Positions 8,077 through 50,206 of a stretch of DNA of 64,000 nt are shown here, in pieces. Every line of letters begins with the position of its first letter. Position 1 is the stretch's first letter. Origin of the DNA: Fidelibacterota bacterium. Its GTDB lineage: Bacteria; Fidelibacterota; UBA2242; JAOZSR01. Below the pieces are notes generated by a model, which ran no database searches, was not told the origin of the DNA, and was given only the letters and a program-made list of their open reading frames with translations. The stretch covers positions 2,092 to 66,091 of the forward strand of contig JAOZSR010000007.1 of the NCBI GenBank assembly GCA_029939575.1, read 5' to 3'. The translations under genes and the position numbers were made by a program.

Positions 8077-8139
8077 AATTCATTCTAATTCTTTTATTTA
8101 AACGAAGTTATTACCCCAAATAATGATAAATTCCCAATC

Positions 8140-9135: not shown

Positions 9136-9162
9136 AATAAATTCTTCTTATCGCCTAATTAA

Positions 9163-10248: not shown

Positions 10249-10416
10249 TTTTCTTTCTAAAAATAATATTTAATTAAACTGTATTCAGTTTGGTATCAAT
10301 AATAGTAACATTCCAGTCTTCAAACTCTTTATAATTAAATTTATCAACATGTTTGAAAGCAAGATTTATCGAAAAATCACTATAATATTCATTATATTGG
10401 TAAACATTTCCTGGTT

Positions 10417-24963: not shown

Positions 24964-26317
24964 TAATATTGTCTATAGCTTGAGCAGGATCCATAAATCC
25001 GGTTTCAGAATCACCTCCTAATTTTTCCTGTATTTGTGTGCTATTTTCAATTACTTTTATTATTGCATTGACAAAATCCTGCATATCATTAATAGTCAAA
25101 GGTTCTCTGACTAAAGGTGATATAATCATTTCTTCTTCATAAAGTTTTTCTACTACCGGGCAGAGACCTTTTTCATACTTATAATCAATATCATTGTAGG
25201 TAAAAGGAAATCCTTTTTTACCAATAGCAATTTGTTGTTGATATATTTTTTCCAGATACAATGGTTTTACATAAGCTTCAGCCAGAGGTGTTGTTTCCCA
25301 TATCCTAGGTTTAGGTAATTCAGCTGCAACCGATCTAACAAATAAATTTCGGGATAAACCAATTATTTCAGCATTGTATCTAATTGGAAACATATAATAA
25401 GCATGAGTCATATCATTTTTTAATTTCTGAACAGTAAGCCCATCTATATTCTCTAATCTTTCTGTAACATATTTTGCTAACTTTTGGCGATGTTTTAAAA
25501 TTTTATCAAGTTTTTGAAATTGTACTGTTGCGATGGTAGCGAGTAATTCTGTAAATCTAAAATTTCCACCAATAACATTTGCAAGGGTATCAAGTTCATA
25601 CATATCTACGGCATTTTCACCATGATTACGAATTAATTGGCAACGATGAGCTAAATCATCATTTTCGGTAACAAGTAATCCTCCTTCGCCTGTGTGAATA
25701 TGTTTATGATAGTTTAGGCTGAATCCTCCAATATCACCGATTGTTCCAACAGGTTTTCCTTTATAAAAAACACCTGGTGCCTGAGCAGCATCCTCTATTA
25801 CTTTTATTCCCAAAGGTTTGGTGATCTTTAATATTTCATCCATATCCGCCGGATGACCAAAAAGATGAACAACAACAACTGCTTTAGTACGTTCTGTAAT
25901 TCTTTCCTTTATAGATTTTGGGTCAATGCAGTAATTTTCAGGATCAATATCTGCAAATATTGGTATTCCACCATAAAACATTGCCGCAGTTGCGGATGCA
26001 GACATCGTATAGGGTGGACAAATCACCTCATCACCAGGCTCTATTCCGACAGCGCCAAAAGCAACCTGTAAACCGGCAGTCCATGAACTCACTGAAATCG
26101 CATGTTTAAAACCATATTTCTCTGCCCATGTATTTTCAAACTTACGAACTTCCGGACCACCTAGGAATAATTTGCCTGCTGCACCAAGAAAACCGGACAA
26201 ATTTCCCGTTTTTATAACTTTGGTTGCTGCATCAATTTCCGCCTGCCCCATAGTAATTCGATCAGGAAATTCTTCAGTTCTTAATGGATTGCCACCTAAT
26301 ATTGCAGGTAAACTCAT
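24950..26317 (-). CDS. DegT/DnrJ/EryC1-family PLP-dependent sugar aminotransferase (long form)
   Basis: FENTWAEKYGFKHAISVSSWTAGLQVAF...IEDAAQAPG...GDIGGFSLNYHKHI (the PLP lysine region) is typical of PseC/LegC-type aminotransferases. Confidence 0.75.
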   Translation of the reverse strand: MSLPAILGGNPLRTEEFPDRITMGQAEIDAATKVIKTGNLSGFLGAAGKLFLGGPEVRKFENTWAEKYGFKHAISVSSWTAGLQVAFGAVGIEPGDEVICPPYTMSASATAAMFYGGIPIFADIDPENYCIDPKSIKERITERTKAVVVVHLFGHPADMDEILKITKPLGIKVIEDAAQAPGVFYKGKPVGTIGDIGGFSLNYHKHIHTGEGGLLVTENDDLAHRCQLIRNHGENAVDMYELDTLANVIGGNFRFTELLATIATVQFQKLDKILKHRQKLAKYVTERLENIDGLTVQKLKNDMTHAYYMFPIRYNAEIIGLSRNLFVRSVAAELPKPRIWETTPLAEAYVKPLYLEKIYQQQIAIGKKGFPFTYNDIDYKYEKGLCPVVEKLYEEEMIISPLVREPLTINDMQDFVNAIIKVIENSTQIQEKLGGDSETGFMDPAQAIDNIIDDE

Positions 26318-26376: not shown

Positions 26377-27348
26377 TTATATTTTTGCTTTGGATTGAAT
26401 TTTATTCGTTATATTATTACATACTTCTAAAGTTTTTAAATCATCAGTAATTGGGCAAATAATTTTTTCTTTTCCCTTTAAAAAATTATAAACATGATCG
26501 GCTGTATGGTATAGGGAATTAGTTAATTGTGTACGAATTTCAGTCGTTTTTTTCAAAGAATGATAGTCTGTAAATATTTTATCACGAATCGATTGCTGAA
26601 ATTCTATAAAGAATCCCGATTCTGTAATCCGAACACGGCCTTTTTCAAAAAAGAAGTCAATTTCAAAAATTCCATAAACTTTACAATCTATATGATTTAA
26701 GTAAAATAAAGTCCCATTCTGAAATTTCAATATTCCTGATACTGATGGATCATCCTGAAAAAAATCATATTTAAAGTCAGTAATTTCTATATTGTTAATT
26801 TCACCGATATAATATCTTAATAAATCAATCATATGAGAGCCATTATGCAAAATACCTTTTCCGTAATAGCCGGTTCCAGCGAGATAATTTCCGAGTTCAT
26901 TGTTAATTTTATTCTTCAGTTCGATATATTCCGGAACGAATCTTCTTCGATAATTGACTAAAGCAGGAATATTTTTATCATAATAATGTTTTATAACTTC
27001 CTTGGATTTTGCAAAACTTTGGGTCAGAGGTTTTTCCGCAATTACAAATTTAATCGGTAATTCTGCAATCTTCATAAGAATATCATAATGATATTCCGTA
27101 GATGCTGCTACAACCACAACATCAATTTTATGATTTGAAAACGCTGTTTCAAAACAAGTAAAATATTGTGTTTGCCAGCGTTCTGCTGCCTTTCTGGCTT
27201 GCTTTTCATTGGTATCTACAAAACCTATAAGATTAAAATGAGCATGTTTACAAAAAGCATGGGCGTGAGTAATAACATGTTCGTCTTCAGGATGGTCATA
27301 AAAAGCACCGATATTTCCGGCACCTATGATTAAAACATTATATTTCAA
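26377..27348 (-). CDS. Gfo/Idh/MocA-family NAD(P)-dependent oxidoreductase
   Basis: N-terminal Rossmann VLIIGAGNIGAFY followed by EKPL, characteristic of Gfo/Idh/MocA sugar dehydrogenases. Confidence 0.7.
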   Translation of the reverse strand: MKYNVLIIGAGNIGAFYDHPEDEHVITHAHAFCKHAHFNLIGFVDTNEKQARKAAERWQTQYFTCFETAFSNHKIDVVVVAASTEYHYDILMKIAELPIKFVIAEKPLTQSFAKSKEVIKHYYDKNIPALVNYRRRFVPEYIELKNKINNELGNYLAGTGYYGKGILHNGSHMIDLLRYYIGEINNIEITDFKYDFFQDDPSVSGILKFQNGTLFYLNHIDCKVYGIFEIDFFFEKGRVRITESGFFIEFQQSIRDKIFTDYHSLKKTTEIRTQLTNSLYHTADHVYNFLKGKEKIICPITDDLKTLEVCNNITNKIQSKAKI

Positions 27349-27359: not shown

Positions 27360-28067
27360 TTATTTTTCGTTTTGTTTCATTAAAAATACTGCTTTGGCAA
27401 ATTTCAAATCATCATAATCATCGATATCAACAGCAGATTCCCATGGAATTGGAAAAAATTTATGTTTTGGGCCATAAAAGCTACCGGCCTTTTTTAGTTG
27501 ATCAACCTTTGCAATCCAAATTGCACCTGTTGGACAATAAAGGTCTTCCAAATCCTGAGATCTTGTAAAAACTCCTCCAGGAAAAATAAAATCAGGCTGA
27601 TTATCTTTTTTCAACTTAGCAGCCCACCATGGATTCATCCACCCAAACTTGAAACAGGAAAGTTGAAAATCATTATGTCGATTTTTAAAATTATCTAAGG
27701 CTGCTAAAATATCTGACGTTCCTCTGATTGGTGTATTTGCCATTAACTGGACAACAATGTCGTAGCTTTCATGCCAATAATTTTCTGCTTGTGAAACACA
27801 ATGGATTGTGGCAGCACTAACCGGAGTAATGTCATCATTGTATTTATCACGTAGAAAAGGAGTATCATTATTGAATTTTTTAGCCGTATTAATTATTTTC
27901 TGATTATCAGTACTGACAACAATCCGATCAAAAACATTTGCATCCTGAGCTGCTTGTATCGTCCAGGCAATCATAGGTTTGCCCATAAAATCAATTATAT
28001 TTTTATAGGGTATACGTTTAGAACCGCCTCTTGCTGGAATAACAGCAATAATTTTTGGTTTATTCAT
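27360..28067 (-). CDS. acylneuraminate cytidylyltransferase family (CMP-nonulosonate synthetase; NeuA/PseF/LegF-like)
   Basis: N-terminal AVIPARGGSKRIPYKNI is the signature of CMP-NeuAc-synthetase-family enzymes. Confidence 0.85.
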   Translation of the reverse strand: MNKPKIIAVIPARGGSKRIPYKNIIDFMGKPMIAWTIQAAQDANVFDRIVVSTDNQKIINTAKKFNNDTPFLRDKYNDDITPVSAATIHCVSQAENYWHESYDIVVQLMANTPIRGTSDILAALDNFKNRHNDFQLSCFKFGWMNPWWAAKLKKDNQPDFIFPGGVFTRSQDLEDLYCPTGAIWIAKVDQLKKAGSFYGPKHKFFPIPWESAVDIDDYDDLKFAKAVFLMKQNEK

Positions 28068-28079: not shown

Positions 28080-29153
28080 TTATTTTATATCTTCCCACAT
28101 TATCAATTCGTCATCCTGTATATCATGATTTACTGTTCGTCCAATTAAGTATTCTACTTCATTTGGCTGCACTCCTCGCCCAGGTCTTTTAAAATCCAAA
28201 TCTTCCCTTCTCAGGATTGTTCCTTTTTTTATTTGCCCATTAGCAACGACACTCCTTCTAAATGCTTTTCTTTGCTCCATTTCTTCCTCAGAAACCCTGC
28301 GTTGATAAGATCCTTTTGCTGCTATAATACGGCGGCCTTCATTAATAATAACATTCATATCAGATTCATCAGCAGATACAGCATGATCCCAACCTGCCAT
28401 TTTTTTATCAAGAGTGAAATGTTTTTCAATAACAACTGCTCCCATAGCAATTGCAGCGAGAGGAATTGAATATCCAATTGAATGATCTGAAAAGCCAACC
28501 GGTACATCAAAAGTATCGTTTAAAGTAATCATATTATTTAAATTTATCATCTCATCCTTAGGTGGATAAATTGATACACAGTGCAATAAAATTACTTCTT
28601 CATTACCATTTTTATATATTGTATTTAATGCACGGTCAATTTCTGCCAGTGTTCCCATTCCCGTAGACAATATTATAGTTCGATTCTTTTTTGCAACGTA
28701 GGCCAAAAGATCGGGATTATTTAAATCCATTGATGCAATTTTAAAAAATGGTACATCCAACTTTTCCAGCATATCAACTTCTTCATAAGAAAAGACAGAC
28801 GAACAAAAAGAAATACTATTTTCATCACAATGATTTTTTAATTCTATATGGTCAGATTCTGAAAGAGAAAATTTTTCTACCATCTGTTCCAGTGTTCCGA
28901 ATTGTTTATCGACAAACTGACTTTTTTCTTTATAAAAATGTTTATTAAATAGTGTATTTTTTGTCCATGACTGAAATTTGGCCGCATCACAATTTAGTCC
29001 TGACAAAGATTCAATCATTTTTTTTGCTAACTCCATATTACCATTATGATTAGCGCCAATATCAGCTATTACATAGGGATAATCATTTTCCATAAACTTA
29101 TTAAAAAAATCAGTCGACATATTTCCTCCATTCCGAATAGGGTAAGATTTCAC
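28080..29153 (-). CDS. nonulosonic acid synthase (NeuB/PseI/LegI family) with C-terminal SAF domain
   Basis: YVIADIGANHNGNMELAKKMIE..., FSDHSIGYSIPLAAIAMGAVVIEKHFTLDK and the C-terminal SAF-like tail are typical of NeuB-family PEP-condensing synthases. Confidence 0.85.
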   Translation of the reverse strand: MKSYPIRNGGNMSTDFFNKFMENDYPYVIADIGANHNGNMELAKKMIESLSGLNCDAAKFQSWTKNTLFNKHFYKEKSQFVDKQFGTLEQMVEKFSLSESDHIELKNHCDENSISFCSSVFSYEEVDMLEKLDVPFFKIASMDLNNPDLLAYVAKKNRTIILSTGMGTLAEIDRALNTIYKNGNEEVILLHCVSIYPPKDEMINLNNMITLNDTFDVPVGFSDHSIGYSIPLAAIAMGAVVIEKHFTLDKKMAGWDHAVSADESDMNVIINEGRRIIAAKGSYQRRVSEEEMEQRKAFRRSVVANGQIKKGTILRREDLDFKRPGRGVQPNEVEYLIGRTVNHDIQDDELIMWEDIK

Positions 29154-30014: not shown

Positions 30015-30692
30015 TTACTGACCTTTATTGTTTGAATAAATAAAAACATGATTCCCTTTACGAATAAAAGCTCCGGGTTTCCCCGGATAAGTTACAGCTC
30101 TGATACGTCGATTTATTTCATTTTCATCCATCCTACAAGTGATTTCACAAAGACTATTTAATTCATTTCGGGTATAGGGACGCCTTTGCCATTTTTCTCC
30201 ACAAAAATGTAAATTTTGTCCTGAAAAAATTTTATCAACTATTATTTTAAAAGAGTCAAATATTTTGTCATAACATTTTTGAGTTACAGAATATACAGAA
30301 TCATATTTATCTATTTTGAACCTTATTACATCGATAATTCGCCCGGTATCCACTTTATCTTCCATTATATGAGATGTAATTCCGTATATAGGTTCTTCGT
30401 TATATAATGCAAAATTTACACAACCGATTCCCGGATATTCAGGGGGACCGGTATGAAAATTAATTGCCCAATCACGAGTATTATTTAGTAGTTTAGCAGG
30501 AATAATCCATGGTGACAGATATGAAATAAGTAAATCACATTTATATTTAACATCTAAAACAGGAAATGGATCTTTTGTATCACCAATGAACACATCAATA
30601 TTATCAGTATATTTTTTTAAATAATCTATTGCTTCCGTGAGATGCGGGCGTTCTTTGGCAAATAGAGCAACTTTTTTTTTATTTCTGACCAT
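30015..30692 (-). CDS. formyltransferase-domain protein (sugar N-formyltransferase candidate)
   Basis: WAINFHTGPPEYPGIGCVNFALYNEE resembles the Fmt/PurN formyl-transferase catalytic core (HxSLLPkyrG). The tetrahydrofolate-binding fold is typical of sugar N-formyltransferases. Confidence 0.65.
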   Translation of the reverse strand: MVRNKKKVALFAKERPHLTEAIDYLKKYTDNIDVFIGDTKDPFPVLDVKYKCDLLISYLSPWIIPAKLLNNTRDWAINFHTGPPEYPGIGCVNFALYNEEPIYGITSHIMEDKVDTGRIIDVIRFKIDKYDSVYSVTQKCYDKIFDSFKIIVDKIFSGQNLHFCGEKWQRRPYTRNELNSLCEITCRMDENEINRRIRAVTYPGKPGAFIRKGNHVFIYSNNKGQ

Positions 30693-31845
30693 TTTTCAAA
30701 ACTCCAATGACATATTCTTGCTGCTCCTGACTTAAATTTACACTTGCTGGAATATTCAAAGTCCTTTCAACCAATTGATAACACCTCTCCAGTTTATATG
30801 TTTGATAATTATTATAAGGTTTCTGCAAATGATTGAGAAACCAAATAGGTCTGCTCTGAATTTTTTCACTTTCTAAATAAGACATAAGTTCATCTCGGTC
30901 TTTCCCGTAAACTTTTGCATCAATTTGTAAACAATACATCCAATAATTGGATTCTGCATATTCAGGAGTATCACTTAGTTTTACTCCTCTTGTTAATTTT
31001 ATAGCCTGTTTATATTTCAGATAATTAGTTTTTTTTATTTTCAAATACTCCGGTAATTTCTCCAGTTGGCCAACTCCCATAGCAGCCTGGATATTTGTAA
31101 GACGGTAATTATATCCAATTTCATGGTGAATATATTTTACAGGATCATCTTTGGCCTGAGTTGTTAAATAACGCACCTTATTTGCATATTTCTGATTATC
31201 AGTCAGGATCATACCACCACCACCACAGGTGATAATTTTATTCCCGTTAAAAGAAAGACATCCTAAATCTCCAAGAGTTCCAGTGTGTTTTCCTTTATAT
31301 TTGCCATCGGTATAAGATGTACCCAAACTTTCACTGGCATCTTCAATAATTTTAATATTCCGCTTTTTACACAAGTCGATCAGATCATCTAAATAACAGG
31401 CATTACCAAAAATATGAACCGGAATAATTGCAGAAATTCTTTTATTTGTTTTTTTATTATAAGTAAAACCATTTTTAAAAATAGTTGCTTCTCTGATGAA
31501 CTCAATTGTCTTTTCTACATCAATATTATAATAATCATCTGCATCCATAAATATAGGATCTGCATTGCAATATTTAACTACATTAATTGGTGATATAAAA
31601 GTAATTGTCGGAACAATAACCTCATCATCAGGTTTTACTCCGGCTACAATTAAAGCAATATGCAAAGCAGCTGTACCATTTACAACAGCAATAGCATATT
31701 TTGCACCAGTATATTCTGCTATTTTTTCTTCAAATAAATCAACATATTTTCCGGCTGAAGAGACCCACTCTGTGTCAAGACACTCATTAATATATTTCTT
31801 TTCATTTCCTTGAATACTCGGTACTGACAAAGGAATAAATTCCAT
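30679..31845 (-). CDS. DegT/DnrJ/EryC1-family PLP-dependent sugar aminotransferase (second copy)
   Basis: EKIAEYTGAKYAIAVVNGTAALHIAL...IIEDASESLG...GDLGCLSFNGNKIIT is the classic aminotransferase layout with its lysine region. Confidence 0.75.
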   Translation of the reverse strand: MEFIPLSVPSIQGNEKKYINECLDTEWVSSAGKYVDLFEEKIAEYTGAKYAIAVVNGTAALHIALIVAGVKPDDEVIVPTITFISPINVVKYCNADPIFMDADDYYNIDVEKTIEFIREATIFKNGFTYNKKTNKRISAIIPVHIFGNACYLDDLIDLCKKRNIKIIEDASESLGTSYTDGKYKGKHTGTLGDLGCLSFNGNKIITCGGGGMILTDNQKYANKVRYLTTQAKDDPVKYIHHEIGYNYRLTNIQAAMGVGQLEKLPEYLKIKKTNYLKYKQAIKLTRGVKLSDTPEYAESNYWMYCLQIDAKVYGKDRDELMSYLESEKIQSRPIWFLNHLQKPYNNYQTYKLERCYQLVERTLNIPASVNLSQEQQEYVIGVLKNGQK

Positions 31846-31857
31846 TAAATTTCCTCA

Positions 31858-32850
31858 TTAAAGTGTTTGATAAAGTTGTAGAATTTTATCTGCAATTTGT
31901 GGAGATGTTAATCCATACTTTTCTAACAAATCGTTGTATTCTCCTGATTTTCCATAAAGATCCGGATGTCCCAGGATTAGCTGCGGAGGTGAATTTTTCA
32001 ATGTAGATTTGTATTCTGCTATTGCGCTTCCCAAACCACCGATAATATTATGTTCTTCTATAGATACAATCAGATTAGTTCCTTCACAGGCGTTTTTAAT
32101 TGCCATCGTATCCAAAGGTTTAATTGTATGCATATTTACAACACAAGCAGATATTCCCTTTTCCAATAATAAATTAGAAGTTTGTAGGGCTTCATAAACC
32201 ATAGTTCCACAAGCGAATATTGTGATATCTTTTCCATTTTTCAGGATATTTGCTTTTCCAATTTCAAAATCATAATCATCTTCATAAACCATTGGATTTG
32301 GAGTTCCACCAGTTAATCGAATATAGATAGGTCCTTTATGTTTCATAGATGCAATAGTAGCTTTTACAGTTTCCCCACTATCGGCAGGAGAAATTACCGT
32401 CATACCGGGAATTGCCCGCATTATGGCAATATCTTCAATACTGCAATGAGTATATCCAAGTGTGCCAAGTACAATACCGGCAGATAAACCAACCATACAA
32501 ACATCATTGTTCATATACCCAAGATTTACCTTGATTTGTTCACAACAGCGCATGGTTTGAAAAGGTGCAAAAGTCGAAGTTATTACCTTATGCCCCTCAC
32601 TTGCCAGACCTGCTGCTATCCCCATCATATTTTGTTCTGCAATACCAACATCCAGATATTTTTCAGGATGGGTTTTACGAAACCTATCCAACCCTGCAGA
32701 AGTGGAAACATCAGCTGTCAAAATCATGAGGTTTTCCATTGTTTTACCTAATTCAACTGCAGTTAATCCAAATGCAGCTCTGGAGCCTATTCTTGACCAA
32801 ATTTTCATTGTCGCTTTATTTATTTTCATGATTTTTATTCCTAATCCCAA
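31858..32850 (-). CDS. transketolase, C-terminal (pyrimidine-binding) subunit of a split transketolase
   Basis: IAEQNMMGIAAGLASEGHKVITSTFAPF and the C-terminal domain are typical of TktB-type small subunits. Confidence 0.8.
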   Translation of the reverse strand: MGLGIKIMKINKATMKIWSRIGSRAAFGLTAVELGKTMENLMILTADVSTSAGLDRFRKTHPEKYLDVGIAEQNMMGIAAGLASEGHKVITSTFAPFQTMRCCEQIKVNLGYMNNDVCMVGLSAGIVLGTLGYTHCSIEDIAIMRAIPGMTVISPADSGETVKATIASMKHKGPIYIRLTGGTPNPMVYEDDYDFEIGKANILKNGKDITIFACGTMVYEALQTSNLLLEKGISACVVNMHTIKPLDTMAIKNACEGTNLIVSIEEHNIIGGLGSAIAEYKSTLKNSPPQLILGHPDLYGKSGEYNDLLEKYGLTSPQIADKILQLYQTL

Positions 32851-33689
32851 TTTAATTCATCAAGAGCAATTTTATATTGTGATTTTGTCAAAATCGCATG
32901 GTGCCAGTCATTATTATTCTCAGCAAATTGAAAACCTTTTCCTTTGATAGTATGTGCGATAATAGCCACAGGTTTACCAGATTTCTTTTTTAATTTAAAT
33001 AAATCGTACATTTCTTTAATATTATGTCCATCGGTTTCATAAGTATCCCAACCAAAACTAGACCACTTTTCCTTTAAATTGCTAACATCCATTACTTCAG
33101 AGTTAGACCCACCTAACTGGAATTTATTATAATCAATAATAGTTGTCAGATTATCTAATTTGAATTGTGCTCCTGCCATAGCGGCCTCCCAAATTGCTCC
33201 TTCATTACATTCACCATCACCAATCAAAACAAATACTTTGAAATCTTTTTGTCTTTTTTTACCTGAAAAGGCAACTCCAACTCCAAGTGATAATCCCATT
33301 CCCAGGCTTCCATTGGAAAACTCTATTCCTTTTTTCCGGTTCATTACAGGATGTCCTACCAGATCGCTATCAGTTTTTTCAAAAGTTAACAAATTTTCAT
33401 CTGACATTAAACCAATTTCGGCTAATGCAGAATAATATCCAAGTACACCATGTCCTTTACTCAAAATAAACCTATCACGTTCAGGATTCTCAGGATTTGA
33501 AATATCATATTTCATAATACCACCATAAAGTGTAGCTGTAATATCAACTATTGATAATCCACCACCAAAATGAGAGCTTAACTTCCCGGCTTCCAATGAC
33601 ATATCAATAATTTTTTTTCGCATATTTTTTGCCATTTTTGTGATTTTTGTAATGATTTTATCATTGTTATCCATTTTACAAACCTCCAT
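32841..33689 (-). CDS. transketolase, N-terminal (thiamine-diphosphate-binding) subunit
   Basis: GHGVLGYYSALAEIG...VLIGDGECNEGAIWEAAMAGAQFKLDNL is the TPP-binding GDG...N motif of transketolase N-terminal subunits. Overlaps the downstream subunit by 10 nt. Confidence 0.8.
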   Translation of the reverse strand: MEVCKMDNNDKIITKITKMAKNMRKKIIDMSLEAGKLSSHFGGGLSIVDITATLYGGIMKYDISNPENPERDRFILSKGHGVLGYYSALAEIGLMSDENLLTFEKTDSDLVGHPVMNRKKGIEFSNGSLGMGLSLGVGVAFSGKKRQKDFKVFVLIGDGECNEGAIWEAAMAGAQFKLDNLTTIIDYNKFQLGGSNSEVMDVSNLKEKWSSFGWDTYETDGHNIKEMYDLFKLKKKSGKPVAIIAHTIKGKGFQFAENNNDWHHAILTKSQYKIALDELNWD

Positions 33690-34455
33690 CTACCCGTAGA
33701 ACCTGCCCCGTAATAAAAGAAGACATTTCTGAGGCCAGAAATAAAGCGGTATTTGCAATTTCTTTCGGTTGACCAACACGCCGTAACGAAGTACGCTGCA
33801 CAACGTTTTCCAAAACTTCTTTTGGTGTATTTAATTCCATCATATCGGTTTGTGTTAATCCCGGAGCAATTCCGTTGACTCTAATATTAGATAACCCCAA
33901 TTCCCGAGACATGACAACACTCGATGTAATTACCGCTGATTTTGTAGCTGCGTATGCCATTCTGCCTTCATTACATTCATAAGCTGCGCTTGATGCAATG
34001 TTTATCACACTACCCTTTTTTTCTTTTATCATTAATTTAATAATATATTGGCTAAATTTAATTTGTGAGAAAAAATTAATATCAAATAATTCTTTCATTT
34101 TATCTACAGAAGTCATTTGGAATAAAGCTGTAAAAATTGCACCGGCATTATTAACCAATATATCAACTGGTTGTTTTGCTGATCTAATTGATTTGATAGC
34201 ATCTTTCATTTGTTTTTCATCTATAAGATCAAAATAGAGAGGATTTATTTGTACATTATTATCTTTAGCAAGTTGTTCTGTAAATTCTATAAAATCAGGG
34301 CTAGATTTCCTCGCACACGCCCAAACGTTGGCACCATTAATTGCAAAGATTTCAGTAATTGCTTTACCAATCCCCCTATTACTCCCTGTTACAATTGCAG
34401 TTTTCCCTGATAATAACACATTCTCTCCTTCAATTTTCTTTTTTGATATAATCAT
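33676..34455 (-). CDS. SDR-family oxidoreductase (FabG/PtmA-like)
   Basis: TAIVTGSNRGIGKAI (TGxxxGxG) and YAATKSAV (YxxxK) are the SDR signatures. Start chosen at the internal Met (MIISKK); the ORF track extends to 34506. Confidence 0.75.
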   Translation of the reverse strand: MIISKKKIEGENVLLSGKTAIVTGSNRGIGKAITEIFAINGANVWACARKSSPDFIEFTEQLAKDNNVQINPLYFDLIDEKQMKDAIKSIRSAKQPVDILVNNAGAIFTALFQMTSVDKMKELFDINFFSQIKFSQYIIKLMIKEKKGSVINIASSAAYECNEGRMAYAATKSAVITSSVVMSRELGLSNIRVNGIAPGLTQTDMMELNTPKEVLENVVQRTSLRRVGQPKEIANTALFLASEMSSFITGQVLRVDGGL

Positions 34456-35488
34456 CTTTGGTAAAAATCTCTCTTGCATCCAATGGATTAAACACAGACA
34501 TTCCATCCCGTTGCATAAATTTTTTTACAAAATCGACATCTTCACCTGCAAGACAGAGTTTGCTATAATTATGAAAATATTTAATACTAAACCCGTATTC
34601 CGATATATCTTTTAAACTCTGCTCAAACACATTCCCAATTTTAATATGCAAATATGGACAAACCAGTACATCACCAATTGGAGTTATATATAAGCGATTA
34701 ACAGTATTACATCCAATTATTTTTTCATATTGCTTATCAAAAGGATTCCAGAGGTCACGAAGTATATTTTGATATTTTTTTCTTAAATATATTAAATATT
34801 TTAAGTCATCTTCATTTAACATTACATCAGTATGATCCTGCCAGCAACCAGATGGAACTGCGGCATTAATTAATGTTGTATAACCATGTTTTTTAGAATA
34901 TTCACACAACTTTTCAATATCCGGTGATTTAATGTTGTAATGTCCTACAGTAATATTTAAATAAGGTGTCATCCCTGTTTTTTGAACAAATTTCAAAGCC
35001 TCAATAGCTTTTTTCCAGGCACCGCTTTTACCACGGAATTTATCATGAATTTCCGGATCGGCACTATCAATACTGACAGAGACACGGCTGACTCCTGCCT
35101 CAGCTAATTGTTTTGCTATAGATTCATCAAGGAGAAAGCCATTGGTTGTAAGATATAAATAAAATCTTTCCGGTTTGATAGCAGTTAATACATCAAATAA
35201 TTTTTGTGGACGGATTAATAACTCACCACCCTGTAAATCAAATTCAAAAATTCCAAGTTCATCAGCCTGGTTAGCAATATCGCCCATTTTTTCTACTGGC
35301 AATTCCTCTTTAATATGATCTCCCTGAGAAGATCTAGTAAAACAATGCTCACAATGAAAATTACAGGCATTATTATAATTTACGTCAATGCCTCGCTGTT
35401 TTACACCTATTTCACCATTATTTTTTCGAAGAGCAGTATGAAAGCTTCTAAATTTCTCAAATACTCTGGGTTTGTCAATAATTGACAT
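34430..35488 (-). CDS. radical SAM enzyme
   Basis: CNFHCEHC (CxxxCxxC) near the N-terminus followed by the GGE motif (DLQGGELL). No obvious cobalamin-binding N-terminal domain. Confidence 0.7.
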   Translation of the reverse strand: MSIIDKPRVFEKFRSFHTALRKNNGEIGVKQRGIDVNYNNACNFHCEHCFTRSSQGDHIKEELPVEKMGDIANQADELGIFEFDLQGGELLIRPQKLFDVLTAIKPERFYLYLTTNGFLLDESIAKQLAEAGVSRVSVSIDSADPEIHDKFRGKSGAWKKAIEALKFVQKTGMTPYLNITVGHYNIKSPDIEKLCEYSKKHGYTTLINAAVPSGCWQDHTDVMLNEDDLKYLIYLRKKYQNILRDLWNPFDKQYEKIIGCNTVNRLYITPIGDVLVCPYLHIKIGNVFEQSLKDISEYGFSIKYFHNYSKLCLAGEDVDFVKKFMQRDGMSVFNPLDAREIFTKDDYIKKEN

Positions 35489-35522
35489 TATTAATAACTC
35501 CTAATAATTTATTTGTATTATA

Positions 35523-35999
35523 TTACATTTTTTTCGTTACTCGAAATTGTTTTAAAATATCTGGCATTACTATCTGAAAATCAGCCTGACATGAAATTTC
35601 ACCATTAACTGAGCCTGTACCTGTACAATTTCCGATTCCACGTTTCCATGATAATAATTTAGTATCCAAATAAAGACGATCTCCTGGTAAAACTTTTCGC
35701 TTTAGTTTAATATTGTTCGCTGATAATAAATACACTACTTTCCCTTTATTTCCATTTAAAGTTAAAACAGTCAGAGCGCACATTTGAACTAATGCTTCAA
35801 TTTGCAACATCCCGGGCATATTTGGATCGCCGGGAAAATGGACAGGAAAAAACCATTCATCTTCATTTAACAATTTATATCCCTTTGCACTGATTCCGGG
35901 AATAACCTCTTCTGCAAAATCAATCATGCGATATGGTGGTCTGTTTTGTTCATATTCATGAATTTCATTCACATTTAATTTTAATGGCATTAAAGGCAT
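35523..35999 (-). CDS. FabZ/FabA-like hot-dog-fold (3R)-hydroxyacyl-ACP dehydratase
   Basis: HFPGDPNMPGMLQIEALVQ matches the FabZ active-site motif (HFPgxPvmPGvL..Ea.aQ). Confidence 0.7.
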   Translation of the reverse strand: MPLMPLKLNVNEIHEYEQNRPPYRMIDFAEEVIPGISAKGYKLLNEDEWFFPVHFPGDPNMPGMLQIEALVQMCALTVLTLNGNKGKVVYLLSANNIKLKRKVLPGDRLYLDTKLLSWKRGIGNCTGTGSVNGEISCQADFQIVMPDILKQFRVTKKM

Positions 36000-36013
36000 A
36001 ATAAATCCATTTT

Positions 36014-37213
36014 CTATTGAATATTAATTATTCTTGATAAATTTCCTATAACATCATATCCATCCCAGATAGGTCCTATATCAAGAGCCTTCCCTACTGG
36101 TACTACTCTATCAATTCCCTTCAACCTATTATGAAAAATAAAATCTAAAAAAATCTTTTTTTCAAAACCAAAATAGGTTAATGTTTGAAAAGAACTGTCA
36201 ACTAAATGGCTTATCGAATTTATATCACTTGTTTCAAATTCATAAAAATATCCAAACTTTCCAATTAGTTGTTCCTTATTTTCAGGAAGTGCCTCAAGAC
36301 TAATCCGATATAAATTAACTCCATTACTCTTAAATGAAATATTCGATTCCATGTCAATAGCATTCCGGCATAATTGCATATATTTATCAACAGTTTGGAT
36401 ATATTCCATATGATATTTTTTTTCAACAATTCGACTGACAGCCTGCCAAAAAACCTCTTTACCCTTTTTATCACTTTTCCCTAACCATATTACTAATCGG
36501 GGAGACGAACAAGCATTTTGGTCCATCAAATATGTATCATTATAAAATTGCGTTGCAAGTTTTTCCAGATTATTTTCATCTAACTGAATAATTTTTTGAG
36601 CATTAAGCACACAGATAGAATAGCGATCAGAAAAAGCAATTTCAATACATCGGGCAGGAACCATTATTTTTCTGATATTGAATATTGTACTATTTCCTCC
36701 CCAAATAACCCGGGCATCACAGTGTTTAGAAAATTCACCGGTTATTTCATCGTTTTTTTTATAACGAACCACTACAGTATTTTCTTTAAAATTATGATAT
36801 TTTTTTTCTGATAATAACATGTTTAAATCATTACAAATAATATCTATTTGGGGAAATTTTTTTGAAGGAGTTCTGACAATATTGGCATTTCCCGCTAACA
36901 TACTAAAAACCAGGGAAAAGGCAAAATTTATAGGAACATTTGATGGAGTAATATGAAAAGCAAGGCCTCTACCAATTCTATTCTTATTATCATGAAATTC
37001 TGATTTCATTTTTTGGACATTGGCTTTTCGACACCAAAATGAAAAAGTTGCAATATCCGGATATTTTGCAACGTTCCTGTTTTTCCTTAAGATTGATGAA
37101 AATTCATTAAGAAATTCACAAACTAAATCATTATACGGAACCATTGGTCTGACGTCAATTTCAGATTGTCCAACTAAATATTCGATATGCGAATTCTCAG
37201 GCAATTGTATCAC
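36014..37213 (-). CDS. LuxC-family acyl-CoA/acyl-protein reductase-like protein
   Basis: 399 aa; reads as a divergent aldehyde-forming acyl-reductase of the LuxC family. No individual motif was checked. Its neighbour is LuxE-like, which supports the pairing. Overlaps that LuxE-like gene by 17 nt. Confidence 0.5.
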   Translation of the reverse strand: MIQLPENSHIEYLVGQSEIDVRPMVPYNDLVCEFLNEFSSILRKNRNVAKYPDIATFSFWCRKANVQKMKSEFHDNKNRIGRGLAFHITPSNVPINFAFSLVFSMLAGNANIVRTPSKKFPQIDIICNDLNMLLSEKKYHNFKENTVVVRYKKNDEITGEFSKHCDARVIWGGNSTIFNIRKIMVPARCIEIAFSDRYSICVLNAQKIIQLDENNLEKLATQFYNDTYLMDQNACSSPRLVIWLGKSDKKGKEVFWQAVSRIVEKKYHMEYIQTVDKYMQLCRNAIDMESNISFKSNGVNLYRISLEALPENKEQLIGKFGYFYEFETSDINSISHLVDSSFQTLTYFGFEKKIFLDFIFHNRLKGIDRVVPVGKALDIGPIWDGYDVIGNLSRIINIQ

Positions 37214-38279
37214 TGCATCCCCGTATTTCCGCTGAAGTTACTCTTCCATTAATTTTAAAATATTTCCCTTTTCTGCCACAAGAGCAATCATCCTCACCAA
37301 GAATTTGCCCGATATCCTCTGTTAAAATATTATGACCCGGATAACTTTTTGGTAAAAGTGAAATTAATTGTACTAATCCGGATTCTCCGACTTTACAAAG
37401 AGATAAATCAGCCCGTCTAATTAAAATATCTGAATAAATAGATGTATGCAGATGCCCTTCTTCACATTCAATAAAAACTGAACCGGTTTGCTCGACCATA
37501 CCATAATAATTATGAACCCTATTAAGTCCACAACTTTTGTTCAAAGCCTTTTTGTAAGAATCATTATCAACAGATTCCTCGGTTAATTTTTTCCATCCTC
37601 CACCATGAAATAGAATTGCATTTTCTAAAGGCAATCGAATTCCTAAGTCAAGTAATTTTTGATGAAAATATTTCCAAACAACAAAAGTAAATCCAAAAAG
37701 CAATATTTTATCATTTTTGTATTTTTCACAAAATATCTGCACATTTTCAATATCCAGTTCCATATTTTCATCTAAAGCATATTGATGATTTCTACCAAAT
37801 GTTGAAAACCCCAGTATTCCGGCACCACGTGCTGAAAAAAGAGTCCTGTCTTTTAACACAGATGGCGTATCTATAATCAGCATAGGCAGACGTTTTTTGC
37901 CAATAAAATTTGTAACAATTTTAGATAGTACTTTGATTTGATTTTTTGCTGCAGTTTTATCGAGAAAAATTTTTGAAACCCGGTTTCCACCAGTTCCTGA
38001 AGAAGTCATGGTTTTGAATATTTCAGATCTTTTAATACTAAACAAATCATACTCCTTAAATAACCTGACAGGAATGAATGGAATCTCACTTAACTTGTGG
38101 GTTTGTGTGGGATCATAATTTAGTAAATTCAGGATATTACGATAATGATCAGAATTTTGATAATGATGTAAAGTCATTTCATTGACAACCTGTAAAAATA
38201 GTTTATTTTTCTCTTCTTTATTTAATCCATAAGGACAATTTTCAATTATTTGATCAATATTAAACAATCTGATTCTCAT
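37197..38279 (-). CDS. LuxE-family acyl-protein synthetase-like (adenylate-forming)
   Basis: The TSSGTGG motif (phosphate-binding loop of LuxE/PaaK-type adenylating enzymes) and a length of 360 aa fit the LuxE family. Confidence 0.55.
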   Translation of the reverse strand: MRIRLFNIDQIIENCPYGLNKEEKNKLFLQVVNEMTLHHYQNSDHYRNILNLLNYDPTQTHKLSEIPFIPVRLFKEYDLFSIKRSEIFKTMTSSGTGGNRVSKIFLDKTAAKNQIKVLSKIVTNFIGKKRLPMLIIDTPSVLKDRTLFSARGAGILGFSTFGRNHQYALDENMELDIENVQIFCEKYKNDKILLFGFTFVVWKYFHQKLLDLGIRLPLENAILFHGGGWKKLTEESVDNDSYKKALNKSCGLNRVHNYYGMVEQTGSVFIECEEGHLHTSIYSDILIRRADLSLCKVGESGLVQLISLLPKSYPGHNILTEDIGQILGEDDCSCGRKGKYFKINGRVTSAEIRGCSDTIA

Positions 38280-39685
38280 TAATTTAATTCAGAGTATAAT
38301 ACTTTCCCGGAATCATTTCTGGGAATATTATCAATAAATTTCATTTTAAAACCAGCTAAGTTGATACCTATTTTAGTTGAAATATATTTTAATACCTTTG
38401 TTTTATCAACATTCCCAGTAAAATAAATTACAAGATTATCATCTGTTCCGGCACAGGCACAGTTATAACCTTTGGTTTTTAACAATTGCTCAACTTCATC
38501 AAGATTAACCCGTTTACCATACATTTTCAAAAATCGTTTCATTCGACCTGTAATATAGAAAAATCCATCGTCATCCCGTTTTGCCATGTCACCTGTATGT
38601 AATATTCCTTTATTTTCATCACCTTTGGAAAGATCAGCAATACATTGAGCATATCCCAGAGTTACATTTTTTCCCTTATATACTAATTCACCGGAAACAT
38701 TATTTTGCTCAATCTTTTGATTATTCAGGTCTTCCAGCCAAAATTGCCCGCCCGGAATTGCAATTCCCATACTGCCCAGTTTTTTTTCTGCAAATTCCCA
38801 GGGTAAATATGACATTCTTGCTGTTGCTTCTGTCTGACCATACATTACAATAAATTTCATATTTTTAGATCTACAAATTTGATTGAATTCAGCAATTATT
38901 TCCTTATTTAGTTTTCCTCCGGCCTGAGTTAATACACGTAAATCCGGTAAATCCATTCTTTCAAAACGTAATTTCTTTAACATTTCATAAATATATGGCA
39001 CTCCACCAAAAGTAGTTGCTTTATACTTTTTTATTTGAGTCCAAAACTTTTTCTCCATCAAAGTTGAATCAGTCATAATAATTGAAGCACCACATAAAAA
39101 ATGGCTGTTTATAATTGATAACATAAAAGTATAACTCATTGGCATTGTAGCAATGGGACGGTCTTTTGGACTAATCTCCAAATATTGGGCAATTGATTCT
39201 GCATTACTATTTATATTTTCATAAGATTGGCGGACAAATTTTTGACTACCTGTACTACCGGATGTTGTCAGCAATAGCGCCAGGTTCGAATCTATCTTAT
39301 GATGTTTATTAAATTGAGTTTTCACTAAAGAATATGCAGAATCTGAAAAAGTCACATCACCATCAATTTTCAGAGGTTTTGATGAATTGGGACGAAAAAT
39401 AAAATTGGGTTGATACTGATTTACCAAGGTTATGAGTAAATCCTGGTCAATTGTGTTATGAATAAGACAAATAACTGCTTTTGCTCGTAAGGCTCCAATA
39501 TATCCGGCAACTGATTCAAAACTATTTTGACAGATAGCAAAAACCAGATCACGGTTTTCCAAAAATTTACCAATCTCATCAGCTTTCTGTATTAATTTCT
39601 GATAAGTTATTTTTTTTCCGCTACTGGTAATAATAGCCAGTTTGTCCTTGTATTTATCAATATCATCATAATAATTCATATTCAC
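38279..39685 (-). CDS. AMP-dependent synthetase/ligase (acyl-ACP/CoA ligase)
   Basis: LLTTSGSTGSQKFV (AMP-binding motif I), YGQTEA (motif II), GDMAKRDDDGFFYITGRMKRFLK (motif III and hinge). Confidence 0.75.
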   Translation of the reverse strand: MNMNYYDDIDKYKDKLAIITSSGKKITYQKLIQKADEIGKFLENRDLVFAICQNSFESVAGYIGALRAKAVICLIHNTIDQDLLITLVNQYQPNFIFRPNSSKPLKIDGDVTFSDSAYSLVKTQFNKHHKIDSNLALLLTTSGSTGSQKFVRQSYENINSNAESIAQYLEISPKDRPIATMPMSYTFMLSIINSHFLCGASIIMTDSTLMEKKFWTQIKKYKATTFGGVPYIYEMLKKLRFERMDLPDLRVLTQAGGKLNKEIIAEFNQICRSKNMKFIVMYGQTEATARMSYLPWEFAEKKLGSMGIAIPGGQFWLEDLNNQKIEQNNVSGELVYKGKNVTLGYAQCIADLSKGDENKGILHTGDMAKRDDDGFFYITGRMKRFLKMYGKRVNLDEVEQLLKTKGYNCACAGTDDNLVIYFTGNVDKTKVLKYISTKIGINLAGFKMKFIDNIPRNDSGKVLYSELN

Positions 39686-39727
39686 TCCATTTGGTTAAAT
39701 CTTCAAAATTTTAATTATTTCATGGAG

Positions 39728-39967
39728 TCACATTTCAATTTTATATTTTTTCAAAATTTCTTTTCCTTTATTATATGAACTAAAATCAATAACATCATCA
39801 GTTTCAAGCATAATTTCAAATGCTTCTTCTAAGGATGCGATTAAAGACATATGCCCTACTGAATCCCATTCCGGAATTGTATTATATTCAAGTTCAGCGT
39901 TTAATTTACTTGCCTCAATTGAAAAGTTTTCCATAAATGCCTGATTATATTTTTCCTGGTTATTCAT
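39728..39967 (-). CDS. acyl carrier protein-like (phosphopantetheine attachment)
   Basis: 79 aa, acidic, with WDSVGHMSLIASLEEAF containing the DS(x) phosphopantetheinylation motif. Confidence 0.6.
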   Translation of the reverse strand: MNNQEKYNQAFMENFSIEASKLNAELEYNTIPEWDSVGHMSLIASLEEAFEIMLETDDVIDFSSYNKGKEILKKYKIEM

Positions 39968-39988: not shown

Positions 39989-40966
39989 TTATTTAAGGTT
40001 CTGATAATTTTTTGAATAGGGATTTTTAAGTATCCCATCCTTTAATAATTTATAAATTTCCCAGATTCCATCAGAAACTCTTTTATTTATTTCATATCCT
40101 AAACAATCTTTAATTTTTGAAAATTCAACCCTATAATCACGAGGATCTTCATCTTTTTTCACATAAGATATTTTAGCATTAGGGATCATTTCCGACATTA
40201 TTTCAGCCAGCATTTTTTTCTGATAATTTTCCTGAGTATCACCAACACCAAAAACCTGTTGATTTACTTTTTCTTTTGGACTTTCGAGTACCAGAATACA
40301 TGCTTTTGCTAAATCTTCAACATGACAATAAGGACGCCAGAACTGTTCTCCAAAAATCACTAATTCTTTACCCAAAGTTAATTCTCTGGCAAATTCATTT
40401 ACTGTCAAATCAAAACGCATACGAGGTGAGATTCCATAAACAGTGGAAAAACGTAATGCAGTGGGAGATAAACTTTTTATTGATTCACTTTCGAGTATAT
40501 ATTTTTCGAACTTTACTTTTAATTTCGCATAAAGAGAAACCGGATTAAGAGGTGATTTTTCATTAACATACCCTGTTCCTTCCATTTTTCCATAATTGCT
40601 ACAAGTTGATGCAAAAATAAATCGTTGAATTGTTTTACTTTCATTGCATTTATCAAATAATAGTTTTGATCCTTCCCAATTAGTTTGAGTTGCAATCTGC
40701 GGATCTTTGGCACATGCCGGATCGCCGACTATTGCTGCAAGATGTACGACACTATCAATATTTTCAAGACTTTTTTCAATATCTTCTTTCTTCCTTATAT
40801 CACCTCTGAAAAATTCAAAATTTGGATGAGAATATATACTTAACAATGATTCTCCTCCAAAATTCAAAATATCCATCCCTCTGACAAAATATCCTTTAGA
40901 TAAAAGTTTTCGGGTTAAAATAGAGCCAATATAACCTGCGCAGCCTGTAACTAAAACACGCCTCAT
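39989..40966 (-). CDS. NAD-dependent epimerase/dehydratase (extended SDR)
   Basis: N-terminal VLVTGCAGYIGSIL Rossmann motif and a length of 325 aa, typical of nucleotide-sugar epimerases/dehydratases. Confidence 0.75.
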   Translation of the reverse strand: MRRVLVTGCAGYIGSILTRKLLSKGYFVRGMDILNFGGESLLSIYSHPNFEFFRGDIRKKEDIEKSLENIDSVVHLAAIVGDPACAKDPQIATQTNWEGSKLLFDKCNESKTIQRFIFASTCSNYGKMEGTGYVNEKSPLNPVSLYAKLKVKFEKYILESESIKSLSPTALRFSTVYGISPRMRFDLTVNEFARELTLGKELVIFGEQFWRPYCHVEDLAKACILVLESPKEKVNQQVFGVGDTQENYQKKMLAEIMSEMIPNAKISYVKKDEDPRDYRVEFSKIKDCLGYEINKRVSDGIWEIYKLLKDGILKNPYSKNYQNLK

Positions 40967-42267: not shown

Positions 42268-42295
42268 AATTTCACCTATATCAATTAATTATAAC

Positions 42296-43624: not shown

Positions 43625-43635
43625 AATTTTCCTTA

Positions 43636-46977: not shown

Positions 46978-47001
46978 GTTTCTTGGTAACCTTTCCTTTT
47001 T

Positions 47002-47883: not shown

Positions 47884-47917
47884 ATCAAACTCCTTTCCTC
47901 ATCTCTTTCAATTTCCC

Positions 47918-49276: not shown

Positions 49277-49283
49277 AATTCCC

Positions 49284-50196: not shown

Positions 50197-50206
50197 TTTT
50201 TCACTC

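Follow-up and report, generated by a model that had tools for sequence, protein, structure and literature searches.

Two adjacent genes match the halves of a split transketolase

The 64,000-nt stretch of Fidelibacterota DNA analysed here (contig JAOZSR010000007.1, positions 2,092 to 66,091; hereafter the window) has a G+C content of about 31% and carries a long array of minus-strand genes, among which two neighbours, TktN and TktC, match the two parts of a transketolase (TK). The open reading frame (ORF) at 32841-33689(-) matches Pfam PF00456 (Transketolase_N; E value, 4e-37), and the ORF at 31858-32850(-) matches both PF02779 (Transket_pyr; 1.6e-34) and PF02780 (Transketolase_C; 2.8e-28). The top PDB matches of TktN and TktC are the two chains of the split TK of Carboxydothermus hydrogenoformans (ChTK; 6YAK/6YAJ), with E values of 1.5e-63 and 9e-66 and about 50% identity, so that the nearest solved structure shares the architecture of adjacent genes for an N half and a C half. 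When scored with the NCBIfam model NF004559, which describes the full-length protein (cut-off, 488), the halves reach 270 and 245 bits, each under the cut-off but together over it. These Pfam and PDB scores are far above chance and confirm, at the level of sequence, the original prediction that the two genes encode the thiamine diphosphate (ThDP)-binding and pyrimidine-binding halves of a TK.

The same prediction described the genes as overlapping, which we trace to the annotation: the 10-nt overlap appears because the longest ORF was taken for each gene. The favoured start of TktN is an ATG at 33674, which has GGAGG 8 nt upstream, lies one base past the stop codon of the preceding short-chain dehydrogenase/reductase (SDR) gene, and gives the database protein P0001. 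TktC probably starts at an ATG at 32829, which follows the TktN stop by 11 nt and has AGGA upstream. On a sibling contig that is nearly identical (L087), the gene calls likewise give proteins of 277 and 323 amino acids (aa). Together, the start codons, the GGAGG and AGGA motifs, and the sibling calls make an 11-nt spacer more likely than an overlap. We found no further TK-like sequence in the 64-kb window.

The TK genes belong to a widespread nine-gene cassette

TktN and TktC stand at the end of a set of genes that we define here as a cassette, comprising an acyl carrier protein (ACP), an AMP-ligase, LuxE, LuxC, FabZ, a radical S-adenosylmethionine (SAM) enzyme, an SDR, TktN, and TktC, of which FabZ and the radical SAM enzyme are optional. 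In the window, all nine genes are contiguous on one strand (31858-39967), and the same nine-gene set occurs in L001, L003, L005, L086, L087, and many genome loci. Our locus sample (L001-L085) consists of 80 loci from a scan of one genome per GTDB species and five earlier loci, all of which were searched with the window proteins by tblastn. We scored a locus as cassette-linked when at least two of ACP, ligase, LuxE, and LuxC lay within 10 kb. By this definition, 53 of 84 TktC loci are cassette-linked and 9 lack these genes, while the flanks of the other 22 are too short to judge. All five close homologues with readable contigs sit in the same cassette, beside genes for NeuB and a CMP-synthetase, lipopolysaccharide glycosyltransferases, or a Maf-type protein.

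Carriers of the cassette are found across many lineages. They include 13 SAR11 genomes, Rhodospirillales, Kordiimonadales, and Hirschia; other carriers are Burkholderia, Paraburkholderia, and Pseudoduganella; Lachnospiraceae, Christensenella, Ruminiclostridium hungatei, and Saccharibacillus; and Bacteroidales, a Tannerella metagenome-assembled genome (MAG; L072), Aquirufa, Synergistaceae, and Aminicenantales. Two Methanoregula are archaeal carriers. Across these taxa, the core consists of ACP, ligase, LuxE, LuxC, SDR, TktN, and TktC, with FabZ present in 33 loci and the radical SAM enzyme in 24. The gene order is shuffled between taxa, while the blocks SDR-TktN-TktC and AMP-ligase-LuxE-LuxC remain intact, which argues for functional coupling rather than chance adjacency. 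The SDR is the most constant partner of the TK pair: 63 of the 79 loci with TktN have a homologue of it, nearly always directly upstream of TktN.

The LuxC-like protein carries a DQNACSSP motif whose Cys is conserved in at least 95% of 50 homologues; it scores 31.7 bits against the LuxC equivalog model (cut-off, 750), and the LuxE-like protein scores 71.3 bits against the LuxE model (cut-off, 550), so that both match at the Pfam family level only. The original prediction had placed a LuxC-like aldehyde-forming gene upstream of the TK genes, and this holds, with coupling of the pair to LuxE/LuxC in 53 loci from many phyla. The 79-aa carrier protein has an invariant W-D-S motif where carrier proteins have their phosphopantetheine-attachment Ser. 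In PDB searches, the AMP-ligase had no match at 1e-25, and the radical SAM enzyme found only the remote relatives MoaA and BlsE. None of the curated NCBIfam models names any cassette member. In the literature searched, whose coverage of subscription journals is incomplete so that a prior description is possible, we found no description of this gene combination with a TK.

A B12-binding radical SAM protein of about 580 aa adjoins the cassette in five loci (L003, 12016-13770; L006, 5329-7071; L004, L008, and L010) and may methylate the same side chain.

The catalytic core is kept and the sugar-phosphate pocket is altered

We aligned the window enzyme to human TK and ChTK and report residues in Escherichia coli TK (EcTK) numbering, with TktC positions counted from the longest ORF. 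The mapping is supported since human TK residues R318, S345, H416, D424, Q428, and R474 land at their published numbers in the alignment. The window enzyme keeps the activating Glu (TktC Glu72) and the equivalents of EcTK His26, His66, His100, His261, and His473, the last of these being TktC His135. In TktN, His40, His80, His113, His263, and the ThDP/metal motif GDGECNEG...N188 are invariant among 22 homologues. The retention of all catalytic His residues suggests that the enzyme uses a true ketol (dihydroxyethyl) donor.

EcTK binds the phosphate of its substrate through R358, S385, H461, and R520 and reads a sugar hydroxyl and its stereochemistry through D469 (PMC11387542). D469 is salt-bridged to R91, and the substitutions D469T and R520Q move EcTK toward non-phosphorylated, non-hydroxylated aldehydes (PMC5073344; the same pocket positions are summarized in PMC7661550). 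The window enzyme retains Arg358 and Ser385 (TktC Arg24 and Ser51). On the other hand, His461 is replaced by Ser (TktC Ser123), Glu468 by Thr (Thr130), Asp469 by Leu (Leu131), and Arg520 by Gly (Gly182), and Arg91, in the N subunit, is replaced by Glu (Glu104). The canonical phosphate-binding set is therefore incomplete, with two of four residues lost, and both Asp469 and its salt-bridge partner Arg91 are absent. As the alignment shows, the predicted ketol-transfer ThDP core is catalytically complete, and the acceptor funnel lacks half of its phosphate ligands and its 2-hydroxyl reader. TktN/TktC is thus very probably not a canonical pentose-phosphate TK, its sugar-phosphate pocket having been lost.

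This altered pocket is a property of the cassette enzymes as a group. All 53 cassette-linked TktC proteins are non-canonical, with A, G, S, or T at position 461, L or F (rarely S or Q) at 469, and never Arg at 520; at TktC position 131, 54 cassette enzymes have L, F, S, or Q. The canonical H/D/R pocket occurs in 10 loci, mostly from Dehalococcoidales, and none of the 10 is cassette-linked, although this is a small sample, biased by the scan patterns, in which nine of the ten have a short flank. Most of the other positions that separate the canonical and non-canonical groups are polar-to-hydrophobic swaps lining the funnel.

TktN/TktC falls outside the canonical split-TK clade

A search of 5.8 billion proteins returned thousands of TktN relatives, the best at 63-70% identity. 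In a neighbour-joining tree of 83 TktC sequences (no bootstrap), ChTK, Dehalococcoidales, and one archaeon form a canonical clade with the pocket RSHDHR, and the window sequence falls in the other, non-canonical clade. A HMMER search of a 50%-identity representative library gave 2027 matches at E <= 1e-30; the best 40 were all non-canonical, and 41 of the best 150 were canonical. In a plasmid-collection protein search, matches reached at most 44% identity and were mainly Rhizobium-type split TKs, compared with 65-70% for cassette-type homologues, and no closer relative was found in that collection.

These data bear on whether TktN/TktC is a housekeeping pentose-phosphate TK that is encoded here by chance. 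The original prediction held that a housekeeping tkt is normally a single gene, which is not always so, since split genes serve as the sole TK in C. hydrogenoformans and in archaea (PMC7661550); the split architecture and the intact catalytic core would both be compatible with a housekeeping role. Against such a role, the pair has lost Asp469, Arg91, and half of the four phosphate ligands, groups outside the canonical clade, and is translationally coupled to cassette genes, and its orthologues accompany the cassette in Paraburkholderia and SAR11, organisms that presumably have ordinary tkt genes. On pocket residues, tree position, and linkage, we rejected the housekeeping TK as highly improbable. 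The comparison with canonical TKs that the original prediction had called for thus supports its view of a dedicated biosynthetic enzyme, given the separate clade and the loss of phosphate- and 2-hydroxyl-binding residues.

Altered pockets also occur outside the cassette. Non-canonical split TKs without it are found in L059, L069, L076, L077, L085, and L080-L082. Spirochaetia and Christensenellaceae have split TKs with the pocket R-T-E-L-H, and those of Verrucomicrobiota, a beta-proteobacterium, and Nitrospiraceae have G-L/Q-K. About 100 of the best 150 representatives in the 50%-identity library are non-canonical, which indicates that split TK-like enzymes with altered pockets are very diverse.

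The cassette is embedded in a predicted nonulosonic-acid island next to flagellar genes

All ORFs of the related loci were clustered into families, and representatives were scanned against Pfam. The recurrent neighbours are sugar epimerases/dehydratases (22 loci), DegT aminotransferases (18 loci), NeuB (17 loci), PglD-like hexapeptide N-acyltransferases (16 loci), CMP-sugar synthetases (12 loci), and Antibiotic_NAT-type N-acyltransferases (8 loci, often directly after TktC). Neighbours of this kind form the genetic setting of N-acylated amino sugars.

In the window itself (Table 1), what had been called a glycan operon is a glycan gene set of a more specific kind, namely a nonulosonic-acid island directly downstream of FlgI, FlgN, FlgK, FlgL, and FliW on the same strand. 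The island probably encodes a legionaminic-acid-type pathway and serves flagellin glycosylation. Its NeuB-type protein scores 343 bits against the NeuB model (cut-off, 400), and the PseF model gives 167 bits (cut-off, 206). The aminotransferase that the original prediction had noted downstream of the TK genes is real and belongs to the LegC family, but it is the C4 enzyme of the nonulosonic-acid core rather than an obvious partner for a TK product. The island has no PglD/LegH-type N-acetyltransferase, which fits the replacement of the usual N-acetyl group. Candidates for acyl transfer in the window are the formyltransferase-fold protein after LegC and the GNAT.

Table 1. Features of the window, listed in the direction of transcription, with supporting matches (score against cut-off where both are given)
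Feature	Position	Strand	Evidence or remark
Flagellar genes FlgI, FlgN, FlgK, FlgL-like, FliW	46546-51343	(-)	Directly upstream of island, same strand
Phosphonate module	40969-45845	(-)	See text
NAD-dependent epimerase/dehydratase, candidate sugar 4,6-dehydratase	39989..40966	(-)	PF01370, 3.9e-43; LegB model, 83 bits vs 475
Carrier protein, ACP-like, 79 aa	39728..39967	(-)	No Pfam match; conserved in 46 related loci
AMP-binding (ANL-family) ligase, presumed carrier loader	38279..39679	(-)	PF00501, 6.2e-48; 48 related loci
LuxE-like acyl-protein synthetase (carboxylate-adenylating)	37197..38279	(-)	PF04443, 5.3e-56; 50 related loci
LuxC-like acyl-thioester reductase (aldehyde-forming)	36014..37213	(-)	PF05893, 2.3e-26
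FabZ-like 3-hydroxyacyl-ACP dehydratase	35523..35999	(-)	PF07977, 2.9e-19; NF000582 (FabZ), 98 bits vs 113
Radical SAM/SPASM-type enzyme	34430..35488	(-)	PF04055, 8.4e-26; PF13186; CxxxCxxC motif
FabG-like SDR	33676..34479	(-)	PF13561, 7.8e-53; stop 1 nt from TktN start
TktN, ThDP-binding (PP-domain) subunit, transketolase-like, 277 aa	32841..33674	(-)	PF00456; 6YAK chain N; longest ORF from 33689
TktC, pyrimidine-binding and C-terminal subunit, 323 aa	31858..32829	(-)	PF02779, PF02780; 6YAJ; longest ORF from 32850; acceptor pocket altered
LegC-family sugar C4 aminotransferase (nonulosonic-acid core)	30679..31845	(-)	TIGR04181, 479.9 bits vs 420
Formyltransferase-fold protein, 225 aa, candidate N-acyl/N-formyl transferase	30015..30692	(-)	PF00551, 7.5e-10, partial (residues 62-142)
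NeuB-type synthase	28080-29153	(-)	Pfam/NCBIfam
CMP-sugar synthetase	27360-28067	(-)	Pfam/NCBIfam
Gfo/Idh/MocA oxidoreductase	26377-27348	(-)	Pfam/NCBIfam
Second DegT aminotransferase	24950-26317	(-)	Pfam/NCBIfam
Epimerase_2-like	23875-24963	(-)	Pfam/NCBIfam
CBS+nucleotidyltransferase	22811-23878	(-)	Pfam/NCBIfam
GNAT	22215-22781	(-)	Pfam/NCBIfam; homologues adjoin cassette in L006, L053
ORF, 402 aa	20985-22193	(-)	No Pfam match
ORF, 242 aa	20144-20872	(-)	No Pfam match
3237-aa protein, three GT2 + one GT4 + SAM-methyltransferase + TPR blocks	10417-20130	(-)	Downstream of the cassette
GT4	9163-10248		Further island glycosylation gene
Cyclic-nucleotide-binding-domain protein and two GT2-TPR proteins	8140-9135 and 5665-8076	(-)	Further island glycosylation genes

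The 225-aa formyltransferase-fold protein, which lies between LegC and a GT2-like gene (GT2 and GT4 being glycosyltransferase families), has no homologue in the 85 other loci (L001-L085), is present on the siblings L087 and L088, and may be a lineage-specific N-formyl or N-acyl transferase. A giant multi-GT protein (>2808 aa) also follows the cassette in L001, and the 3237-aa protein of the window is a candidate multi-step protein glycosyltransferase, possibly acting on flagellin. Neither a Maf-type (PF01973) transferase nor a flagellin gene was identified in the window. Between the GNAT and the giant glycosyltransferase come the ORFs of 242 and 402 aa; the latter ORF has one remote homologue, in L067, and one of the two might take the Maf role.

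Upstream of the cassette, a phosphonate module encodes a phosphonopyruvate decarboxylase (TIGR03297, 384 bits; cut-off, 312), a cytidylyltransferase-phosphoenolpyruvate (PEP) mutase fusion (TIGR02320, 409 bits; cut-off, 320), a phosphonate-type Fe-alcohol dehydrogenase (below cut-off), and a sulfatase-fold protein. This raises the alternative that phosphonoacetaldehyde, formed through the PEP mutase and decarboxylase, is what the TK extends, as in phosphonothrixin biosynthesis, in which one ThDP-dependent enzyme is reportedly a split-TK homologue. The two phosphonate genes lie 7-12 kb upstream in the same operon-like array, and phosphonoacetaldehyde lacks a 2-hydroxyl, which would agree with the missing Asp469; PMC11387542 cites work on two ThDP-dependent enzymes of phosphonothrixin. 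However, none of the 85 related loci has a homologue of PEP mutase or phosphonopyruvate decarboxylase, which marks the phosphonate module as an independent neighbour, and the Fe-alcohol dehydrogenase, the cytidylyltransferase fusion, and the sulfatase-like transferase already explain a hydroxyethyl-phosphonate decoration. Since phosphonate genes are absent from the related loci, we rejected phosphonoacetaldehyde as the acceptor and regard this reading as scarcely credible. The module does suggest that a CMP-activated hydroxyethyl- or aminoethyl-phosphonate decorates the same glycan.

A model in which the cassette builds an N-acyl side chain

Since the TK pair is coupled to LuxE/LuxC in 53 loci, the transfer of a C2 ketol unit to an aldehyde made by LuxC is the most economical reading. 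This preserves the reaction that the original prediction proposed, a C2 ketol transferred onto an aldehyde, but shifts the acceptor: since SDR and LuxE homologues are found in 63 and 50 loci versus 17 for NeuB, an acyl- or ACP-bound aldehyde is likelier than the nucleotide-sugar aldehyde named there. For the same reason, namely that SDR, ACP, ligase, LuxE, and LuxC co-occur with the pair more often than sugar-core genes do, an N-acyl side chain is a likelier product than the "higher-carbon amino sugar" first suggested. Our hypothesis is that, most probably, the cassette supplies a sialic-acid-like sugar with an unusual side chain, and that the sugar in this case probably sits on the flagellum. 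In our judgement, there is an even chance that TktN/TktC is a heterotetrameric, ThDP-dependent, C-C bond-forming enzyme of a glycan-tailoring cassette that makes such an N-acyl side chain. More tentatively, the acceptor may be a carrier-bound (or free) omega-oxo acid, which, once extended by the C2 ketol, would provide nonulosonic acids and other amino sugars with polyhydroxy-acyl N-substituents of a new class.

In this scheme, the AMP-ligase would first load a small dicarboxylic acid onto the 79-aa carrier protein; a dicarboxylic acid is proposed because the cassette has two carboxylate-activating enzymes, one carrier, and one reductase. LuxE would then adenylate the free distal carboxylate and LuxC would reduce it to the aldehyde. 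The TK would draw on a ketose phosphate or hydroxypyruvate for a dihydroxyethyl (C2 ketol) unit and attach it to this non-phosphorylated aldehyde without a 2-hydroxyl, and the FabG-like SDR, whose gene is translationally coupled to TktN, would then reduce the ketone so formed, leaving a polyol chain. Further tailoring of the chain by FabZ and the radical SAM enzyme could follow in the variant found in the window. Finally, an N-acyltransferase would place the acyl group on the amino group introduced by LegC, yielding a CMP-activated legionaminic-acid-type sugar in which the unusual N-acyl group replaces acetyl, probably for transfer to flagellin. We infer in what order the steps run, which acid is used and how long it is, and what serves as donor and as final acceptor. 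Two purely illustrative routes can be drawn. Oxalyl could give glyoxylyl-ACP and then 2,4-dihydroxy-3-oxobutanoyl-ACP, which would put the keto and hydroxy groups at C3, where FabG- and FabZ-type enzymes act; alternatively, malonyl could give 3-oxopropanoyl-ACP and then 3,5-dihydroxy-4-oxopentanoyl-ACP.

Other uses of a C2 unit have to be weighed against this model. The TK might instead act on a sugar, transferring the C2 ketol to a free aldose aldehyde or to the 4-keto group of a nucleotide sugar to give a chain-extended or branched sugar, with reduction by the SDR and possibly amination. NeuB-type pathways pass through a free 2,4-diamino-2,4,6-trideoxyhexose with an aldehyde, which would provide such an acceptor, and two loci speak for this use. 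One is the well-flanked locus L012 (Lachnoclostridium sp. UBA5725; 4403-16048), which has SDR-TktN-TktC in an island of flagellin type with Maf, the pseudaminic-acid genes PseB/PseF/GNAT (PseB/F/H-like), GT4, a TupA-like ATP-grasp ligase, and a different radical SAM/SPASM enzyme, and in which ACP, ligase, LuxE, and LuxC are all missing within 9-10 kb. The other is the sibling contig L088 (JGI 3300005264, 5388-7460), where a 78-nt in-frame deletion, corresponding to window positions ~31810-31887, removes the last 10 TktC codons, the spacer, and the first 12 LegC codons and produces a gene call for a 690-aa TktC-LegC fusion; this may reflect natural variation, a defective allele, or an error of assembly. 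However, ACP, ligase, LuxE, and LuxC co-occur with the pair in 46-50 loci compared with 17 for NeuB, sugar acceptors have a 2-substituent and many hydroxyls whereas the pocket lacks Asp469 and is more hydrophobic, and LegC scores as an ordinary core-pathway enzyme. To our knowledge, no such TK-made sugar product has been reported for nonulosonic-acid loci, and we found no paper in the literature searched to support the earlier statement that split TKs in polysaccharide loci are thought to extend sugars. We therefore consider a sugar acceptor unlikely.

The TK could also supply glycolyl units, with dihydroxyethyl-ThDP being oxidized and the glycolyl group passed to a carrier or to an amine or hydroxyl, so that an N-glycolyl nonulosonic acid is formed, comparable to Rif15 and to QncN/L-type formation of glycolyl-ACP. 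The cassette includes a carrier protein and is present in the Tannerella MAG, and N-glycolyl and N-glyceroyl nonulosonic acids are reported to exist in Tannerella. The two-subunit TK Rif15a/b provides a precedent, since it converts the C2 unit of xylulose 5-phosphate (Xu5P) or fructose 6-phosphate (F6P) into a glycolate ester (PMC6002545). On the other hand, the core cassette has no oxidant (no lipoyl/E2, quinone, or flavoenzyme), and a glycolyl supplier would leave LuxE, LuxC, the second adenylating enzyme, the SDR, and FabZ without a role, which makes this use rather improbable.

Some observations weigh against the side-chain model itself. The LuxC-like protein and true LuxC are only very distantly related (PDB E value, 0.0077). 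Without Asp469, the enzyme also lacks a contact to the 4-hydroxyl of the ketose donor, which makes the donor uncertain, with hydroxypyruvate a candidate beside Xu5P and F6P. The comparison with canonical-pocket loci draws on the small and biased sample described above. The gene content of L012, at least one locus of this kind, implies that tethering to a carrier is not obligatory and that a free aldehyde, or another compound, could serve as acceptor; there, the TK might act on a free aldehyde-acid that is later ligated by the ATP-grasp enzyme, or on something else. The TktC-LegC fusion, if functional, would hint at a closer link of the TK to the sugar aminotransferase. L012 looks like a carrier-free version of the pathway.

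Significance of a transketolase lineage probably recruited into glycan tailoring

The cassette TKs are a large, natural, and widespread lineage with a re-shaped acceptor site that has probably been recruited into glycan tailoring. TK is otherwise a textbook enzyme of central metabolism, and few natural TKs are known from biosynthesis (Rif15, AniP, and the phosphonothrixin enzymes). Since evolution has changed the positions that engineers mutate to accept non-phosphorylated aldehydes, these enzymes are ready-made candidates for biocatalysis. Their carriers are very abundant or host-associated (SAR11, gut anaerobes, and Burkholderia), with the genes in surface-glycan and flagellin-glycosylation loci. 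The cassette predicts a new acyl decoration on sialic-acid-like sugars, and such decorations influence phage recognition, immune recognition, and motility. If the model is true, it would represent a previously undescribed decoration route for bacterial and archaeal surface glycans and the first TK with an acyl-carrier-bound acceptor. In addition, the automatic label "transketolase" can inflate reconstructions of the pentose-phosphate pathway in MAGs.

Comparison with known systems

The pathway around the cassette resembles that of legionaminic acid (LegB/C/H/G/I/F and PtmE), with LegC above its cut-off and a NeuB-type synthase, a CMP-sugar synthetase, an Epimerase_2-like protein, and a CBS-nucleotidyltransferase. 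It differs in that the window has no PglD/LegH-type N-acetyltransferase, the LegB, NeuB, and PseF models stay below their cut-offs, and the nine extra cassette genes are inserted. For the side chain, a precedent is the tetronate module of Vibrio cholerae, the gene set of which Morona et al. are said to have defined in 1995 as an ACP, an AMP-ligase, a LuxE/LuxC-like protein, an alcohol dehydrogenase, and an acyltransferase. It likewise forms part of a glycan locus and is assigned to providing a short hydroxy-acyl group that N-acylates an amino sugar; in V. cholerae O1, VC0248-VC0252 (wbeK-O) are assigned to the synthesis of the hydroxy-acyl (tetronate) group that acylates perosamine (PMC3441752). 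Unlike the window cassette, the tetronate module lacks a TK, FabZ, and a radical SAM enzyme, and it does no more with the aldehyde than reduce it to the alcohol.

Among TKs, Rif15a/Rif15b of rifamycin biosynthesis is likewise encoded by adjacent genes in a biosynthetic cluster, and for this two-subunit TK it is biochemically established that Xu5P or F6P can donate a C2 unit to an acceptor other than a sugar (PMC6002545), a precedent for the side-chain model. The acceptor there is a quinone carbonyl, the product is a C-O linked glycolate ester, and no ACP, LuxE/LuxC, or SDR partner is involved. AniP of anisomycin biosynthesis, a TK-family enzyme of secondary metabolism, shows no conservation of the phosphate-binding residues and refuses phosphorylated acceptors (PMC11387542). 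However, AniP is a single chain without the His-rich motif and uses aromatic 2-keto acid donors, whereas the window enzyme keeps all of the catalytic His residues.

ChTK shares with the window enzyme the division into a PP domain carried by one chain and Pyr plus C-terminal domains carried by the other, together with the ThDP and metal ligands and the catalytic His. It is the only TK of its organism and has the canonical pocket R-S-H-E-D-H-R (PMC7661550), while the window enzyme carries Ser, Thr, Leu, and Gly at positions 461, 468, 469, and 520, falls in the other clade, and is embedded in a biosynthetic cassette. Engineered EcTK variants (D469T, R520Q, S385Y, and others) carry changes at the same pocket positions and have shifted away from phosphorylated, 2-hydroxylated aldoses toward non-phosphorylated aliphatic, aromatic, and carboxylated aldehydes (PMC5073344, PMC7661550). 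Those variants are single-chain laboratory enzymes, whereas the window enzyme belongs to a natural lineage in which His461, Asp469, Arg520, and Arg91 have all been replaced.

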